Under the pieces are notes generated by a model. It was given only the letters and a program-made list of their open reading frames with translations, was not told where the DNA came from and ran no database searches. Of a stretch of 22,080 bases of DNA, positions 1,372 through 7,326 are shown piece after piece. Location of the stretch: IMG/VR virus record IMGVR_UViG_2713896773_000024, one strand, 5' to 3'. The stretch's first letter is position 1, and each line of letters opens with the position of its first letter. Source of the DNA: a virus (Duplodnaviria; Heunggongvirae; Uroviricota; Caudoviricetes). A program made the translations under genes and the position numbers.

Positions 1372-1405
1372 ATCCTTCTCCTTAGTGGGTCTCAATTGAT
1401 ACCAT
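1352..1405. promoter_or_regulatory. Two 20-bp direct repeats (TGGGTCTCATTTGATACCAT at 1352-1371, TGGGTCTCAATTGATACCAT at 1386-1405), candidate repressor operators; first copy overlaps the C start codon
   Basis: 19/20 identity read directly from the sequence, 34 bp apart; P2 C is known to bind directly repeated operators in the switch region. Confidence 0.5.
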
Positions 1406-1434
1406 TGCAACGAAAAGGCAACCGCCAATATAAG
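1405..1434 (+). promoter_or_regulatory. Candidate sigma70 promoter firing rightward (TTGCAA, 17-18 bp spacer, ATATAA/TATAAG), -35 overlapping repeat copy 2
   Basis: Hexamers read from sequence only; no experimental support. Confidence 0.3.
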
Positions 1435-1587
1435 CAGTTACAAGCCGAAATAAGCGCCTAGCGCTAATGCGGAGATTAGCACAAATGAGTGGAAGACTTG
1501 AGCAGGGCAACAGAAGTGACGGAATCCATGTTGCTGAATTCCGCCGTAGTTATTTCCCAAATGGACGTTATGCAGGGACGGTTAAAA

Positions 1588-1824
1588 CTAGTGGCTCCGT
1601 TTCGGGGCCAGTGAAGAAGCAAGTTCAGCTTTAGCAATGTATTGCTGGAGGAAGGTTACGGTGTCTTTTGCTTGCTCAATGGTTAAACCAGTAAACAACT
1701 CGCCTGCTTCGGGCAGTTTTGTCGGTGTAGCTAAGTGGTAGTGGAAGCGTAAGCAAGCCAGGTCATTAGCAACGAGGTATTCAAGTTCAGCAGGAATGTA
1801 GATAGGTACTTCTTTCTGAGACAT
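1588..1824 (-). CDS. Hypothetical 78-aa protein lying between the repressor and cox (no counterpart in the P2 switch region)
   Basis: ATG at 1822-1824 (minus) with AGGAG 6 nt upstream; protein-like composition (MSQKEVPIYIPAELEYLVANDLACLRFHYHLATPTKLPEAGELF...); no family recognised. Confidence 0.55.
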   Translation of the reverse strand: MSQKEVPIYIPAELEYLVANDLACLRFHYHLATPTKLPEAGELFTGLTIEQAKDTVTFLQQYIAKAELASSLAPKRSH

Positions 1825-1920
1825 AAAGATCTCCTTTCTGGTTGTGTGGAAACTCCAGAATACCACGCGCCGGGCGTGGCTAAAAATCCCGGCATATCTT
1901 CAATGAGAGGTGATAACGCT

Positions 1921-2202
1921 ATGACAGACAAAGAGTTAGAGGGGTTCATTGAAGTGCGTCATGCCGTTGACGCGGTTCCATACCCTAAATTTGCCGAGTT
2001 AATCGGTAAGAAGCCCGCCACGGTTAAGAGCATGATTGAAGACGGTAAGTTGCCGATCATCCCGTGGAAGAACCCGGAAAGCCTGGGCGCCCGTGCTGAG
2101 AACTGGATCTATATTCCTGAGTTCAACCGCGCAATGCGTGACGCCTACTACAACCGTCCGAGAGAGCAGCGCGACGCTTGGTTGCTGTGGATCGGTCTTT
2201 GA
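1921..2202 (+). CDS. cox: Cox-like excisionase / early-switch DNA-binding protein
   Basis: 93-aa product; ...PYPKFAELIGKKPATVKSMIEDGKLPII...ENWIYIPEFN...RDAWLLWIGL resembles P2 Cox as I recall it (C-terminal GWLMWLGL); GAGG upstream of ATG 1921; divergent from C. Confidence 0.72.
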   Translation: MTDKELEGFIEVRHAVDAVPYPKFAELIGKKPATVKSMIEDGKLPIIPWKNPESLGARAENWIYIPEFNRAMRDAYYNRPREQRDAWLLWIGL

Positions 2203-2212
2203 GGTTATCGCG

Positions 2213-2416
2213 ATGAGCCAGAAAACAGCCAACCACGAAAACCGGGTGCGTGAATGCAACAACATTCTGGACACCCATTTAAAAGATATGCAAACGGGCT
2301 TCATGATTCGCACCAATAGCGGCGAATTTATGATCAGGGATAAAAAGCTGATTAAGAAAATAACCAAAGACGTGGCCCGCCATGTTGATGGTGAATTGCT
2401 TAAATTGGGAATGTGA
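2213..2416 (+). CDS. Hypothetical 67-aa early protein
   Basis: ATG 2213 with GAGG 8 nt upstream; starts 10 nt after the cox stop; no recognisable motif. Confidence 0.5.
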   Translation: MSQKTANHENRVRECNNILDTHLKDMQTGFMIRTNSGEFMIRDKKLIKKITKDVARHVDGELLKLGM

Positions 2417-2634
2417 GGGGGGCTTTTGTGGCTGTGCAATTAATACAGTTAAGTCGTCATTCATATTTATATCGTGGCTTCACGATTCAAAAGTGCCCGC
2501 GTAATCCATTTACGTTTAAGCACTCTTATCGTATTTCCAGCAATGGCGATTATTACGGGCGTGACTTTGCTTTAGCGGAAGCCATGCGCACGGTTGATCA
2601 GATGTATAAGCAAGGGGGCAGTAATGCACGATGA
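2413..2634 (+). CDS. Hypothetical 73-aa protein (GTG start overlapping previous stop, ATGTGA)
   Basis: ORF in AT-rich island; start codon uncertain (GTG 2413 or downstream). Confidence 0.35.
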   Translation: MRGAFVAVQLIQLSRHSYLYRGFTIQKCPRNPFTFKHSYRISSNGDYYGRDFALAEAMRTVDQMYKQGGSNAR

Positions 2635-2854
2635 AGGCCCATCACTGGCAAGCCTGCTTAAGCACGGGTGCCAGTTTACACACTTCAAAAACTCACGCGG
2701 CTGGCTGGAAACACCAGACGGGCAATTCTTTAAACCTGAGCCTAGCAAGGTTCAATTTATTAAGGGAATGAGTAAGCCCTTTGTTTATACGAAGAAGATA
2801 AACAAAGGATTGCTTTTTAACCTTGTTAATTCTTTGAGAGATTTAATCGGCTAA
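2624..2854 (+). CDS. Hypothetical 76-aa protein
   Basis: ATG 2624 preceded by AGGGGG; overlaps upstream ORF by 11 nt; AT-rich codon usage unlike the phage backbone. Confidence 0.45.
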   Translation: MHDEGPSLASLLKHGCQFTHFKNSRGWLETPDGQFFKPEPSKVQFIKGMSKPFVYTKKINKGLLFNLVNSLRDLIG

Positions 2855-2897
2855 CAACGTCAGTTAAATAGTAATTAAAAAACAGTCTTCACTGTCG

Positions 2898-2913
2898 TCA
2901 CTTAATTAAGTGA
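2898..2913. promoter_or_regulatory. Perfect 16-bp palindrome TCACTTAATTAAGTGA about 35 bp upstream of the TerB-like gene; candidate operator
   Basis: Read directly; sits in a 94-bp AT-rich non-coding spacer (2855-2948). Confidence 0.35.
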
Positions 2914-2948
2914 TGGCGCTTTCACTCATCCTAAAAAGGATAAATAGC

Positions 2949-3383
2949 ATGTTTAATAAACTGTTTGGAAAAAAAGTAGCAGCGGCAAAAGTTGAACTTA
3001 AGAAAGTGGAAAATCGCGATCTTATGGAAGCTATTGTCGGCGGTTGTCTTTTGGTATCTGCCGCCGATGGCGAGATCGAAAAAGAAGAAACCAGCAAGCT
3101 GGATCAGCTTATCCGCTCTAACCCGCGCCTTGCGCATTTCGGCAATGAAATTACATCCACCATCAACCGCTATACGGAACAGCTTGAAGCTGGCTTCCGC
3201 GTTGGCCGCATGAACATTTTGCGCGAAATCGACGACATCAAAAACGATCCGAAAGAAGCCGAAGAAGTCTTCGTCAACATGCTGACTATCGCCGAAGCGG
3301 ACGGCCAGATCGAACCAGAAGAACAGAAGGTGCTGGAAGAGGTCGGGCGCCGTCTGGGGCTGCGTGTTGAGGATTATCTCTGA
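2949..3383 (+). CDS. TerB-family (tellurite-resistance TerB-like) domain protein, 144 aa
   Basis: Two repeats of the TerB-type acidic motif: AIVGGCLLVSAADGEIEKEE and MLTIAEADGQIEPEEQKVLEEVGRRLGL; overall pattern similar to E. coli TerB as I recall it; ATG 2949 with AAGGA 9 nt upstream. Confidence 0.7.
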   Translation: MFNKLFGKKVAAAKVELKKVENRDLMEAIVGGCLLVSAADGEIEKEETSKLDQLIRSNPRLAHFGNEITSTINRYTEQLEAGFRVGRMNILREIDDIKNDPKEAEEVFVNMLTIAEADGQIEPEEQKVLEEVGRRLGLRVEDYL

Positions 3384-3565
3384 TGCTGCGCGTGCTGGAT
3401 TCACTACGTCCGGCGCTGGCCCTGCTGTTGGCCTTCATGGTCGTAGCAGTGGATTTCACCAGCTACCTGCTTTCGGTGATTGGCGACGCCTTCTTCGTTG
3501 GCGCTCTTCTTCTCCTTGTCTGGCCTGCCATCAAGTCAGCTAACCAATCAGCGGATCACCAGTAA
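3383..3565 (+). CDS. Small membrane protein, 60 aa, two predicted TM helices; translationally coupled to the TerB-like gene (TGATG overlap)
   Basis: Hydrophobic stretches ALALLLAFMVVAV and FFVGALLLLVW; start overlaps upstream stop by 1 nt. Confidence 0.6.
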   Translation: MLRVLDSLRPALALLLAFMVVAVDFTSYLLSVIGDAFFVGALLLLVWPAIKSANQSADHQ

Positions 3566-3568
3566 CAG

Positions 3569-3595
3569 ATTGCCGGGGAAACCCGGCAATTTCTG
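3569..3595 (+). terminator. Candidate intrinsic terminator / stem-loop (ATTGCCGGG-GAAA-CCCGGCAAT followed by TTTCT)
   Basis: Perfect 9-bp stem with GAAA loop immediately after the membrane-protein stop; U-tract is short, so may be partial. Confidence 0.45.
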
Positions 3596-3607
3596 AGGCT
3601 TCGAATC

Positions 3608-3820
3608 ATGACTAAACGCGATCAATATAACTTCATCCTGCACGTTCTCTTACCTGCTGTTGAGCGTGAAGGGCTGACGATTAAAACCCGCCGCGATGGT
3701 GAGTTAACCCTTTCTTCTGACGATCCCTCTGTTTCCTGCTTTATCGACGACATGCGCCAGCGCCTTACCACGGCGTTGCAGCGTCCGGCTGTTCCATCTT
3801 CCCCTTACGGAGTCCTGTAA
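3608..3820 (+). CDS. Hypothetical 70-aa protein
   Basis: ATG 3608 with GAGG upstream; no recognisable motif. Confidence 0.55.
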   Translation: MTKRDQYNFILHVLLPAVEREGLTIKTRRDGELTLSSDDPSVSCFIDDMRQRLTTALQRPAVPSSPYGVL

Positions 3821-3821
3821 A

Positions 3822-4793
3822 ATGATCCGCCCGTTCATCAAATGGGCAGGGGGTAAAACCCGTGTCCTTCCTGACCTGCTGCCGCACCTTCCTAAAGCCG
3901 ACTGCCTGATCGAACCGTTCGTAGGCGGCGCATCGGTATTTCTGGCGACTGAGTACCGCCGCTATGTGCTGGCTGATATCAACCCGGATCTTATTAACCT
4001 TTATCGGAAAGTCACCCGTTACCCGGACTTAGTGATCGATGCGGCCCGCGAACTGTTCAACAGCAAGAACAGCCCGCAGGGGTACAACGAAGTCCGCGCC
4101 GCGTTCAATAAGCAGGTATGTACGGTAAAAAGCTGTGGGTTGCGTTATGGCGTCGAAATGGCGCGCATCATGCGTGCTGCTCAATTCCTGTATCTGAACC
4201 GCCACGGTTATAACGGCTTATGCCGTTACAGCCGTAAGACCGGCTTTAACGTGCCGTTTGGCAAGTATAAGAGCGTCTACTTTCCTGAAAATGAAATCCG
4301 CCTGTTTGCCGAAAAGGCCAACGATACAAAGGCAATATTTCTTTGCGCGCCGTTCCAGCGTTCTCTACAGGTCGTCACGGGTGGCGATGTTCTCGTTTAC
4401 TGCGATCCGCCTTACCTGCCTGAAAGCAAAACAGCCGATTTTACCCAATACCACACCGAACCATTCACGGAAGACAACCACCGCCAGTTAGTCCAGGCAC
4501 TGCTGGAAGTTAACCGTAAGCATGGCGTGAAGGTTGTCATTTCCAACAGCGACACCGAAGCCACCCGCGCGATTTATCAGCCTTTCAAGATGCACGAAAT
4601 CAGCGTGCAACGTTCCGTCAGCACTGACAAAGACAACCGCCAGAAGGCCAAAGAAGTGATCGGCGTGCTGCCTGTCTGCGACTGCTGCGGGCGTTACGGC
4701 GGCGGTTGCCCTGATTGTGGCGCCGTGATGGGTGATGCGACTTACAACGCGATGGTTGCGGCAGGCACGTTTGACGATATGGAGGCGTTTTAA
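3822..4793 (+). CDS. dam: DNA adenine methyltransferase, Dam family, with about 45-aa Cys-rich C-terminal extension
   Basis: KWAGGK, EPFVGGASVF (motif I), DPPY (motif IV), LYLNRHGYNGLCRYS, ISNSD; clearly collinear with E. coli Dam as I recall it; extra tail ...PVCDCCGRYGGGCPDCG.... Confidence 0.9.
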   Translation: MIRPFIKWAGGKTRVLPDLLPHLPKADCLIEPFVGGASVFLATEYRRYVLADINPDLINLYRKVTRYPDLVIDAARELFNSKNSPQGYNEVRAAFNKQVCTVKSCGLRYGVEMARIMRAAQFLYLNRHGYNGLCRYSRKTGFNVPFGKYKSVYFPENEIRLFAEKANDTKAIFLCAPFQRSLQVVTGGDVLVYCDPPYLPESKTADFTQYHTEPFTEDNHRQLVQALLEVNRKHGVKVVISNSDTEATRAIYQPFKMHEISVQRSVSTDKDNRQKAKEVIGVLPVCDCCGRYGGGCPDCGAVMGDATYNAMVAAGTFDDMEAF

Positions 4794-4972
4794 TGAATCT
4801 TGTAGACGCCTGGATCGTTGAAATCATAAGCGTGAGTCGTGGCGAGATTGTGCCGTATTGGTTGGTTGAGGCGAAAGTAACAGCTTATGGAAGGGAGTCA
4901 ATAACCACAATTCTGAAGAAATCAGAAGAGGAAGCCAAAGCCGTTAAAGTAGGGGATGTAGTTCAAATATGA
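4793..4972 (+). CDS. Hypothetical 59-aa protein (below the ORF-track size cutoff), coupled to both neighbours (TAATG upstream, ATGA downstream)
   Basis: Uninterrupted frame MNLVDAWIVEIISVSRGEIVPYWLVEAKVTAYGRESITTILKKSEEEAKAVKVGDVVQI; GGAGG 7 nt upstream of ATG 4793. Confidence 0.5.
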   Translation: MNLVDAWIVEIISVSRGEIVPYWLVEAKVTAYGRESITTILKKSEEEAKAVKVGDVVQI

Positions 4973-7326
4973 CCACGGCAACCCGTGGCCGTCGCGCCCC
5001 TTCTCCACCTCCACCGTATCCGGGTAGCACTGACAATGCTATCCCTTACGCTTATGGCGGGAACAAACCATACCAGCCGATTGGCGTTGATGTAGCGCCG
5101 GGGCTGGATGGTTTCGACTATCTCATGCCGGACGGCACGCGTAAGCATATTGCGTTCAGTGAACTGGTAGCGGAGGACGAAAAGCCGGAACGCAGTAAGC
5201 TGCTGCGTCGCCGTCTGGCTTCTCTTCCGCAATATGTCCGCCGCCACTTTGCAGCGAAGCTTGATGCGCTGGATGTGAAAGACCGCAAAGCGGCAGATCA
5301 CTGGCTGCTTAACACCTTTGAGCGCCACGTATTAACGCGTATTGATAGCGTGAACAGTGTTTACCAGCCTGATACTGTGATGCCCGGCATTCTGCTGCCA
5401 ATTCGCGATCAGCTTTTCCGTATGCTCTGGGCAGGGAAAAAAGAGTTAAAAAGACTGGCTTATACGCTTGCCGATATCTTTACGAGCGAGTTTATACGCG
5501 AGTCCGATCACCAGTTGGTGCGCACCGGCGATCCTGAGTTCGCGGCGCTTTCTGGCTATGGCCGTATTGCATCGCTGGCAGTGCATCTGAAAACGCCGAT
5601 CCCCGGTTGGACAGCTTATTGCAATGAAGAACTTGAAGCGGAGGACGCGTTACGCGCAGTTCTCCGTCTTGAGTCACCGCAGTGGTGGTTAAACCGCCTG
5701 CGCCGTATCCATGCCCGGTGGCGTGAGCATTTGATGATCGCAGCGGGATACGTCCAGAAAAAATCCTCCCCATACAGTAGCGCCCCGTGCCTTACGGAAT
5801 GGCTGGCCCAGAAAAAAGCTAACCGTGAATACCTCAAGGCTATGGAACTGGAAGACCAGGACACGGGCGAGCGCATTTCGCTGATCGATAAAGTCGCCGG
5901 CAGTGTTGCCAATCCGGCCAACCGTCGCCGCGAACTCATGACGAGAATGCGCGGATTTGAAGATCTGGCGAAGCTGGAAGGGCTGGCCGGTGACTTCTAC
6001 ACGCTGACAGCGCCTTCCCGCTATCACGCTATGCAGCATAACGGGCGCCGTAATAACAAATACTGTGGCGCGTCGCCGCGTGAGACACAGCAATATCTTT
6101 GCAAAGTCTGGGCGAGAACCCGCGCCGCATGGAAGAGAAAAGGGATCCGCGTCTTTGGTTTCCGCGTGGTCGAACCGCACCACGATGCAACGCCACACTG
6201 GCATTTGCTTCTTTTTATGCGCCCGGAATGCGTCGAGCAGGCGCGCGAAATCTTCCGTAAATATGCCCTGAAAGAAGACGGCAACGAACCGGGAGCGCAG
6301 GAAAACCGCTTTCAGGTCGTGCCGATCGACGATGCCCACGGCAGCGCAACTGGCTACATAGCGAAATACATTTCGAAGAATATCGACGGCTTCGCGCTGG
6401 ATGGTGAGAAGGACGACGAAACCGGGGAAGACCTGAAAGAAATGTCACTCCGCGTTAGCGCGTGGGCATCGCGCTGGGCTATTCGCCAGTTTCAGCAAAT
6501 CGGCGGTGCGCCGGTCACGGTATATCGCGAACTTCGCCGCCTGGGCGATCGCGAACTGGTGTTACACCCTGAACTGGAAACCGCCCGGCAGGCCGCTAAC
6601 GGTGGCGAATGGGATAACTACGTATTAGCCCAGGGTGGCCCGTTGGTTGAGCGCGATAAGCTGCGCATCCGTCTGAATTATGAAACCACTGAAAACGGTA
6701 ACGCCTACGGCGATAACGTCCAGCGAATCACTGGTATTTACTGCCCGATTACGGGCAATGACTCTTTGATCTTCACCCGCACCACTCAATACAAAATCGT
6801 GCCGAAGCGCCAGAGCGCTGACGGTGTGGCCGTTGACGTTGGTTTTTCAGGCGGCAACGCCGCCCCTCGGAGTTCTGTCAATAACTGTACGCGGGATCCC
6901 GCGACAGGTGCTGACGGTCTTGAACATGCCGATCACGAAGTGGGCGAGACGGTGAATTTTGATGCTCTTTCACGGCAGGAAAAGCGGGAACTGGCACAGA
7001 GGCTAAGTGACGATGTGCGAAGTAAGCGGAAAAAACGGCCACCGGAACGGGAAGACGGGGCCGGGATATCCGTGAAAGAGCAGCAGATCAGTGAACTGCT
7101 GGCGCTGCGTGGGATTGATGCCAGCGCCGGAATGGTCAGATCGATGATGGCCGGTGCGTCAGTGGCGTGCGGCGATCTTGTTATGACAGTGCAGGATGGG
7201 CGGCTGGTATCGCGCAACCGCGCCGCGTCGGGGCTGGATAAGCTGCCGTCGCAGGTGATGGCGGCGAAGCAACAGACAAATAGTCTTATTAACCGAATGA
7301 AAAAAGCCTTTAACGGTGCGTCATAA
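4969..7326 (+). CDS. A: Rolling-circle replication initiation endonuclease, P2 A-like
   Basis: 785 aa; HUH-type motif PHWHLLLF and paired tyrosines GYIAKYISK (Y-x3-Y) typical of the phiX174 gpA / P2 A superfamily; position after early genes and before cos. Confidence 0.9.
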   Translation: MTTATRGRRAPSPPPPYPGSTDNAIPYAYGGNKPYQPIGVDVAPGLDGFDYLMPDGTRKHIAFSELVAEDEKPERSKLLRRRLASLPQYVRRHFAAKLDALDVKDRKAADHWLLNTFERHVLTRIDSVNSVYQPDTVMPGILLPIRDQLFRMLWAGKKELKRLAYTLADIFTSEFIRESDHQLVRTGDPEFAALSGYGRIASLAVHLKTPIPGWTAYCNEELEAEDALRAVLRLESPQWWLNRLRRIHARWREHLMIAAGYVQKKSSPYSSAPCLTEWLAQKKANREYLKAMELEDQDTGERISLIDKVAGSVANPANRRRELMTRMRGFEDLAKLEGLAGDFYTLTAPSRYHAMQHNGRRNNKYCGASPRETQQYLCKVWARTRAAWKRKGIRVFGFRVVEPHHDATPHWHLLLFMRPECVEQAREIFRKYALKEDGNEPGAQENRFQVVPIDDAHGSATGYIAKYISKNIDGFALDGEKDDETGEDLKEMSLRVSAWASRWAIRQFQQIGGAPVTVYRELRRLGDRELVLHPELETARQAANGGEWDNYVLAQGGPLVERDKLRIRLNYETTENGNAYGDNVQRITGIYCPITGNDSLIFTRTTQYKIVPKRQSADGVAVDVGFSGGNAAPRSSVNNCTRDPATGADGLEHADHEVGETVNFDALSRQEKRELAQRLSDDVRSKRKKRPPEREDGAGISVKEQQISELLALRGIDASAGMVRSMMAGASVACGDLVMTVQDGRLVSRNRAASGLDKLPSQVMAAKQQTNSLINRMKKAFNGAS
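6865..6881 (+). other. Candidate origin nick site inside gene A (CCTCGGAGTTCTGTCAA)
   Basis: Resembles the P2-type ori motif I recall (CCTCGGAGTCCTGTCAA-like) and lies in the 3-prime third of A where P2 ori is located; recollection not verified. Confidence 0.35.

Follow-up and report, generated by a model that had tools for sequence, protein, structure and literature searches.

A conserved three-gene early block including a Fil homologue between cox and a stem-loop in a P2-like Escherichia coli prophage

The AT-rich stretch at positions 2213-2854 of the analysed DNA, a 22,080-nucleotide viral sequence from the class Caudoviricetes (the whole of which is referred to here as the window), very probably represents the promoter-proximal part of the early lytic operon of a P2-like (Peduoviridae) Escherichia coli prophage, a conserved three-gene block that has cox on one side and, on the other, the stem-loop with which the first segment of the operon ends; the probability of this reading was estimated at roughly 0.85. 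The three genes (ORF1, ORF2 and ORF3) constitute an ordinary, conserved and already annotated early block of a known P2-like prophage group, in which one member, the fil homologue ORF3, has a known function and the other two are uncharacterised. The block is already present in RefSeq under the same names: positions 1400-3700 are 100% identical to several E. coli chromosomes, on which the products are named by PGAP/RefSeq as Cox family protein, hypothetical protein, DUF4761 family protein, phage filamentation protein Fil family protein and TerB family protein. The surrounding genes are int, C, cox, dam and the A replication gene (Table 1), and five of the six close relatives have a Cox protein 99-100% identical to that of the window, the sixth, a Citrobacter prophage, having one with 73% identity. 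The discovery value of the locus is small, with a modest value as a pointer towards the target of Fil, the DUF4761 family and ORF1.

Table 1. Features of the regulatory and early region of the prophage, in window coordinates
Feature	Position	Strand	Description
Integrase gene	1-981	minus	opens the regulatory/early region of the P2-like prophage
C-type repressor gene	1051-1371	minus	
78-aa ORF	1588-1824	minus	between the switch region and cox
cox	1921-2202	plus	PF10743, 82 bits (cut-off 27.5); phrog_272; Cox-family excisionase/repressor; gene 1 of the early operon
ORF1, 67 aa	2213-2416	plus	ATG start; phrog_29148
Shine-Dalgarno-like sequence for ORF2	2415-2422	plus	GAGGGGGG; contains the variable-length G-run
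ORF2, 68 aa	2428-2634	plus	GTG start; PF15958 (DUF4761); phrog_2492
ORF3, 76 aa	2624-2854	plus	ATG start; PF10893 (Fil); phrog_816
Spacer after fil, 94 nt	2855-2948		34% GC
Stem-loop	2894-2917	plus	10-bp stem; in the AT-rich spacer after fil
TerB-family gene	2949-3383	plus	PF05099, 54 bits
DUF3927/TciB-like gene	3383-3565	plus	PF13064, 30.8 bits
70-aa ORF, Dam methylase gene, 59-aa ORF			in that order, after the DUF3927/TciB-like gene and before A
A replication gene	4969-7326		

The compositional contrast that had drawn attention to this region in a first-pass annotation of the sequence was confirmed by windowed GC analysis, and the dip proved to be the deepest in the window. The GC content of 2213-2854 is 43.5% compared with 54.3% for the window (approximately 11 points lower), which places it about 2.9 standard deviations under the average for all windows of 642 nt. 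Just 2.2% of these windows reach so low a value, and the GC content at the next independent minimum is 45.0%. The true minimum is centred further to the right, at 2394-3035 (40.3%), because AT-richness is greater still in the spacer following fil (34% GC) and at the 5' end of the TerB gene than in the three genes themselves. The suggestion of independent acquisition that had been drawn from this contrast was not upheld, as the same trio occurs after cox in the same order and with a similarly low GC content (41-44%, against 48-52% for the fetched loci) in six close relatives and one divergent relative. The order cox-ORF1-DUF4761-fil was found in the Salmonella phages SEN4/SEN5, the Enterobacter phage phiT5282H and prophages of Salmonella, Kosakonia, Citrobacter and Erwinia, and also in the divergent relative, a metagenome sequence whose proteins are 63% (Cox), 42% (ORF1), 65% (ORF2) and 63% (Fil) identical to those of the window; gene order was constant in every examined relative carrying ORF1. 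The AT-richness was therefore inherited with an old, shared module and is not the mark of a recent arrival in this prophage. The first-pass annotation had named, as an observation that would count against its own proposal, clear homology to ordinary P2 early proteins together with matching GC in related phages, and this is essentially what was found.

The best-surviving of the competing explanations is that the trio is a moron or anti-defence island acquired horizontally from a low-GC donor, with products that inhibit restriction or other host defences. Its appeal lies in the position of the trio as the lowest-GC stretch of the window, some 11 points under the mean, and in the fact that ORF1 and DUF4761 are without known function, but it was judged improbable on several grounds. 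The module has the same composition and order in all examined relatives, including the one with a Cox protein only 63% identical, so any acquisition must have been ancient and shared; DUF4761 is a fixture beside Cox-like genes in many types of prophage; and ORF3 belongs to the Fil family of division inhibitors. The anti-defence role put forward in the first-pass annotation also failed to find support, as PADLOC returned no matches, comparison of the trio with known anti-defence proteins (Acr, Acb and others) gave no significant similarity of sequence or fold, the resemblances to AcrIF24 and Acb4 being at chance level, and the Rfam and PADLOC searches yielded nothing relevant. Further, the segments in which the relatives truly differ are those at 1465-1920 and 2949-3565, both of them outside the trio.

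These two segments, comprising the TerB/DUF3927 cassette and the minus-strand 78-aa ORF, are the real local insertions, and they lie next to the trio. The cassette, with PHROG matches to phrog_632 and phrog_1470, was not detected by tblastn in any of the six close relatives, while the 456-nt segment carrying the 78-aa ORF occurs in the Erwinia prophage but not in phiT5282H. There is also evidence of recombination at the right-hand edge of the trio, with a breakpoint inside fil: DNA similarity to the relatives falls off from about position 2700 onwards, and synonymous divergence (dS) against most relatives is 0.05-0.26 for ORF1 and ORF2 compared with approximately 1.0 for fil, the 3' part of which is a divergent allele. 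This pattern is apparent in SEN4/SEN5 and phiT5282H, in which the order and spacing of cox-ORF1-DUF4761-fil are identical to those of the window, with the same low GC, and the ORF1 and ORF2 proteins are 96-97% and 97-99% identical, respectively, but the Fil proteins are only 75-77% identical. These phages differ further in being without the TerB/DUF3927 cassette and, in the case of phiT5282H, without the 78-aa ORF.

The three small open reading frames following cox were present as first described, apart from the start of ORF2. This had been placed at a GTG at position 2413 inside the sequence ATGTGA, giving a protein of 73 aa, but that codon is in the ORF2 frame only in this window because the run of G between the ORF1 stop codon and the next GTG is variable in length, comprising 6 G in the window, 5 in five of the relatives and 4 in the Citrobacter prophage. 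An otherwise identical E. coli genome is longer by one base, most simply a seventh G, somewhere in the interval separating ORF1 from the DUF4761 gene. The conserved start is the GTG at 2428, giving 68 aa and located 5 nt past the Shine-Dalgarno-like sequence GAGGGGGG; it is the start annotated by RefSeq in the identical E. coli sequence, SEN5 and phiT5282H, and it agrees with the N-termini of DUF4761 proteins generally. The requirement of ORF2 for a GTG start, as originally remarked, was borne out, this codon being retained by all six of the close relatives compared. Once ORF2 is taken to begin at 2428, it and ORF1 are separated by a gap of 11 nt and do not overlap, and the description of the trio as small, coupled early proteins consequently stands for their small size, their tight packing and the 11-nt overlap of ORF2 with ORF3, but not for the proposed overlap of ORF1 with ORF2.

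The first-pass annotation had recognised no motif in any of the three proteins; however, two of the three score above curated cut-offs, ORF3 as Fil (PF10893) and ORF2 as DUF4761 (PF15958). ORF3 matched PF10893 (Phage_186_Fil) over residues 6-63 with 77 bits (cut-off 25, E 8.7e-22) and phrog_816, described as 'cell division inhibitor', with E 1.3e-20. An alignment of seven Fil proteins, including that of phage 186, contained invariant residues at M1, P6, S7, A9, S10, L11, L12, H20, G26, W27, D32, G33, P38 and K47, such that the shared residues occupy the N-terminal two-thirds of the protein and the C-terminal 25 or so residues vary freely. On the basis of these matches, ORF3 is a clear homologue of Fil and, by analogy, a predicted inhibitor of cell division, the phage 186 record stating of fil that 'overexpression blocks cell division'. 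The earlier suggestion of a host-takeover role for the trio can thus be carried forward for ORF3 only, as a member of the family whose 186 representative blocks division when overexpressed.

The correspondence with 186 extends to size (76 aa against 75 aa), to the conserved N-terminal residues common to both proteins, and to position, with both genes in the first early lytic segment, 3' of the cox/apl gene and 5' of a stem-loop or terminator. However, identity to 186 Fil is only 34% over 44 aa, and the last 25 or so residues of ORF3 are unrelated to those of 186 Fil and differ even from those of the closest relatives. Gene content also differs, as the order in 186 is apl-cII-fil-dhr-tR1, so that fil has cII and dhr as neighbours there, as opposed to ORF1 and DUF4761 here.

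Small phage proteins that block E. coli division via FtsZ include lambda Kil, P1 Icd and T7 Gp0.4 (PMC3961180, PMC11897509). Fil resembles these as a small early phage protein causing filamentation of E. coli, a functional analogy, and no sequence relationship between Fil and any of the three was detected. No paper identifying the molecular target of Fil, in 186 or elsewhere, was found in the literature searched, nor did the searches turn up an experiment on any of the three proteins of the trio. On the precedent of these FtsZ inhibitors, Fil would most likely act on the divisome, and, as reported for overexpressed 186 Fil, it may block host septation early in lytic growth, such that the infected cell would remain a single undivided compartment while the phage replicates. 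The highest hydrophobic moment was located at the C-terminus in all four of the Fil proteins tested but was unexceptional in comparison with shuffled sequences, for which reason a membrane-targeting helix in Fil remains only an idea.

ORF2 is a member of the DUF4761 family, judging from its matches to PF15958 (42 bits, cut-off 27) and phrog_2492 (E 4.5e-29), and nearly all of its database homologues carry PF15958. The family is widespread in Enterobacterales and has the invariant motifs YRGFTI..CP and DFAL..A, which ORF2 shares along with the typical length of 64-70 aa and a location near a Cox-like gene. The arrangement differs from that of most other prophages in that DUF4761 directly follows the Cox-like gene in those, as in P88 and the Serratia, Klebsiella and Rahnella prophages, whereas ORF1 intervenes here. 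The gene that comes after DUF4761 is fil in the Rahnella prophage and an unrelated small ORF in P88 and in the Serratia and Klebsiella prophages. An AlphaFold model of ORF2, of moderate confidence (pLDDT 76), contains four to five strands and a C-terminal helix; a structural search with this model gave no match, sequence-profile searches of the PDB with DUF4761 and Fil gave nothing significant, and no paper mentioning DUF4761 was found in literature searches. This basic protein, made up of a beta-sheet plus a helix, is most probably an early-acting factor with a target in the host or a part in the lytic switch. DUF4761 merits attention as a strongly constrained and well-conserved small protein that many enterobacterial prophages encode next to the excisionase gene and that has no literature of its own.

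The same comparisons bear on whether DUF4761 and Fil form a toxin-antitoxin-like pair, in which DUF4761 would neutralise the toxicity of Fil, a form of pairing that had been raised in general terms for the trio. The two genes overlap by 11 nt and are also adjacent in the Rahnella prophage and in the divergent relative, and overexpressed Fil is growth-inhibitory according to the 186 record. Against this, each is found in the absence of the other: Fil occurs without DUF4761 in 186 (cII-fil-dhr) and SI7 (cox-fil), no Fil is annotated alongside DUF4761 in P88 or in the Serratia and Klebsiella prophages, and only 6 of 46 phage records matching DUF4761 also match the Fil of the window, at the sensitivity of tblastn. 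Membership of the pair or trio is thus not obligatory, and this speaks against a toxin-antitoxin relationship; no match to a toxin or antitoxin family was obtained in Pfam, NCBIfam or PADLOC. This pairing was considered very unlikely.

ORF1 belongs to a narrow orphan family. It matched phrog_29148, of unknown function, with E 3.9e-49 and had no match in Pfam or NCBIfam, and an indexed search returned 37 clusters that were all at least 79% identical except for one fragment. When 1.8 billion representatives were searched exhaustively with an ORF1 profile, only one further true member emerged, which is distant (39% identical) and located in the same cox-ORF1-DUF4761-fil context; the other matches from this search were rejected as spurious, being long repeat proteins with a DxQTGxxxR beta-hairpin motif in common. 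The family is confined to the lineage of this prophage, where it is placed between cox and DUF4761, and ORF1 is of interest as a rapidly diverging orphan in a fixed position. Its AlphaFold model consists of a helix, a beta-hairpin and a helix, at moderate confidence (pLDDT 71), and a structural search with the model gave no match. Two further candidates for a relationship were discarded. P2 Orf78, encoded next after cox in that phage, has no relationship to ORF1 or ORF2 (hhalign probabilities of 1.5% and 0.1%, respectively), and a 67-aa ORF that precedes DUF4761 in Serratia and Klebsiella prophages and is ORF1-like in size and spacing is a Cox-like excisionase (phrog_575).

A tentative resemblance was noted between ORF1 and Dhr of phage 186, of which the phage record states that it 'inhibits host DNA replication'. 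The two are similar in size (67 aa and 66 aa) and both are encoded in the first segment of the early operon, and a local match spanning the end of the first helix and the beta-hairpin was obtained by pairwise BLASTP (E 4e-4, 23 residues) and by hhalign (E 2.4e-4, with a probability of only 44% and covering 25 of 66 columns), the matched motif being one that also matches unrelated repeat proteins. Set against these likenesses, the two proteins fall in separate PHROGs (29148 and 6069), the CCKEF motif of Dhr is missing from ORF1, and ORF1 lies two genes upstream of fil while dhr in 186 follows fil and overlaps its 3' end. No local alignment was obtained between ORF2 and Dhr, and literature searches on Dhr returned nothing useful. 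That ORF1 may be a distant functional counterpart of Dhr, depressing host DNA replication, is consequently a low-confidence lead rather than a finding. A more ambitious proposal would be that ORF1 is a fast-evolving Dhr-like inhibitor of host DNA replication and DUF4761 a widespread Cox-associated early factor with a target in the host or the switch, the two forming with Fil a three-part module that arrests host replication and division at the onset of lytic growth. This was regarded as speculative and rather doubtful, and, if true, it would supply the first functions for two uncharacterised families. Small early phage proteins of this kind have in the past yielded inhibitors of essential host machinery, and simple expression tests could therefore be informative.

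All three open reading frames are genuine protein-coding genes under purifying selection. In a codon-by-codon comparison with the six close relatives by the Nei-Gojobori method, dN/dS was 0.11-0.40 for ORF1, 0-0.11 for ORF2 and 0.09-0.17 for ORF3, compared with 0-0.15 for cox, and frames, lengths and start codons were all kept. The contrary possibility that one or more of the frames is not a gene and that the AT-rich stretch instead serves as non-coding regulatory or RNA sequence, which could be entertained given the shortness of the ORFs, the need of one for a GTG start and the lack of a curated Pfam or NCBIfam family for ORF1, has a negligible likelihood in view of dN/dS ratios far below 1 for all three, the constancy of frame and length across these relatives, the occurrence of a distant ORF1 homologue in the same position, the absence of any noteworthy Rfam match and the presence of a Shine-Dalgarno sequence at each start.

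ORF1 starts 10 nt past the cox stop codon with a GAGG Shine-Dalgarno sequence 8 nt upstream, and the ATG of ORF3 is preceded by AAGGGGG at a distance of 6 nt; the Shine-Dalgarno sequences and the 11-nt overlap of ORF2 and ORF3 are conserved in relatives. By analogy with P2 and 186, infection or induction would lead to transcription of cox and the trio as one message from an early promoter beside the C repressor gene, after which each gene would be translated from its own Shine-Dalgarno sequence, with ORF3 additionally coupled to ORF2 through the overlap, and the stem-loop after fil would close the first operon segment.

This stem-loop occupies the place of tR1 in 186 and of the putative terminator in P2, and its role as a terminator is likewise putative, there being no adjacent T-run in the window. 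The 101-nt spacer containing it has a folding z of -3.9, and the structure has been retained by all six close relatives and by the Rahnella prophage, the changes being for the most part one-sided and G-U-compatible, with one compensatory pair. At the other end of the operon, a promoter-like site at 1347-1376, the presumed early promoter, has only a 9/12 match, with such sites no more frequent than in shuffled sequences. It is flanked by two 20-nt direct repeats at 1352-1371 and 1386-1405, which are operator-like in appearance.

The TerB/DUF3927 cassette is an insertion; it is missing in all six of the close relatives, which include phages SEN5 and phiT5282H, and is carried by several E. coli prophages. 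Its left recombination junction lies at approximately 2700-2720, within fil, the gene that follows ORF1 and the DUF4761 gene (ORF2) in the early operon, and it is because this junction falls inside fil that the C-terminus of the Fil protein is divergent in the window prophage. In the spacer after fil, a stem-loop is found whose 3' arm is strongly conserved (AAGTGGCGGCGG in relatives versus AAGTGATGGCG in the window) and is followed by ACTCAT. Conservation of this structure reaches a Rahnella prophage with an integrase that is only 51% identical, and the stem-loop is a candidate terminator, processing site or protein-binding site.

Features of the early region and its surroundings (window coordinates unless stated)
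Feature	Position	Details
Direct repeats, two of 20 nt	1352-1371 and 1386-1405	TGGGTCTCA(T/A)TTGATACCAT
Promoter-like site	within 1347-1405	TTGACT, 18 nt, TATCCT
Inserted segment	1465-1920	456 nt; between C/cox switch region and cox
78-aa ORF	1588-1824	minus strand; inside the inserted segment
G-run	2417-2422	ORF1-ORF2 spacer, Shine-Dalgarno region of ORF2
Stem-loop	2894-2917; about 3470-3495 in L015	spacer after fil
TerB-family gene and DUF3927/TciB-like gene	2949-3565	cassette between fil and 70-aa ORF
Dam methylase gene	3822-4793	323 aa; intact in window

Upstream of cox, the inserted segment together with its 78-aa ORF looks like a true moron. The ORF is antisense to the early transcript, within its leader, has a terminator-like hairpin downstream at 1545-1518, and returned no match in searches of Pfam, PHROGs, NCBIfam and PADLOC. 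An Erwinia prophage carries the segment, at 97% amino acid identity, phiT5282H is without it, and other ORFs occupy the site in SEN5. At the neighbouring switch, the -10 element of the promoter-like site is flanked on both sides by the 20-nt direct repeats, an arrangement shared with the O1/O2 operators around Pe in P2. Repeats occur at the same place in phiT5282H, but they differ from those of the window, and its C repressor is only 86% identical; this combination suggests that the two differ in immunity type.

The length of the G-run varies across relatives, at four, five or six G residues, and an E. coli genome that is elsewhere identical to the window has one additional base between ORF1 and ORF2, most simply a seventh G of the run. 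Given the location of the run in the Shine-Dalgarno region, its length could alter translation of ORF2; alternatively, part of the variation may be homopolymer sequencing error. Separately, a single metagenome contig encodes an in-frame ORF1-DUF4761 fusion of 85 aa (P0032), composed of the first ~48 residues of ORF1 and the last ~37 residues of DUF4761; the fusion is either a variant that arose by deletion or an artefact of assembly.

The chromosome of E. coli 0H26 is 100% identical to the window over 1400-3700. Its Dam methylase gene is annotated as a disrupted pseudogene, and the intact gene in the window therefore indicates that the window derives from another strain or another assembly.
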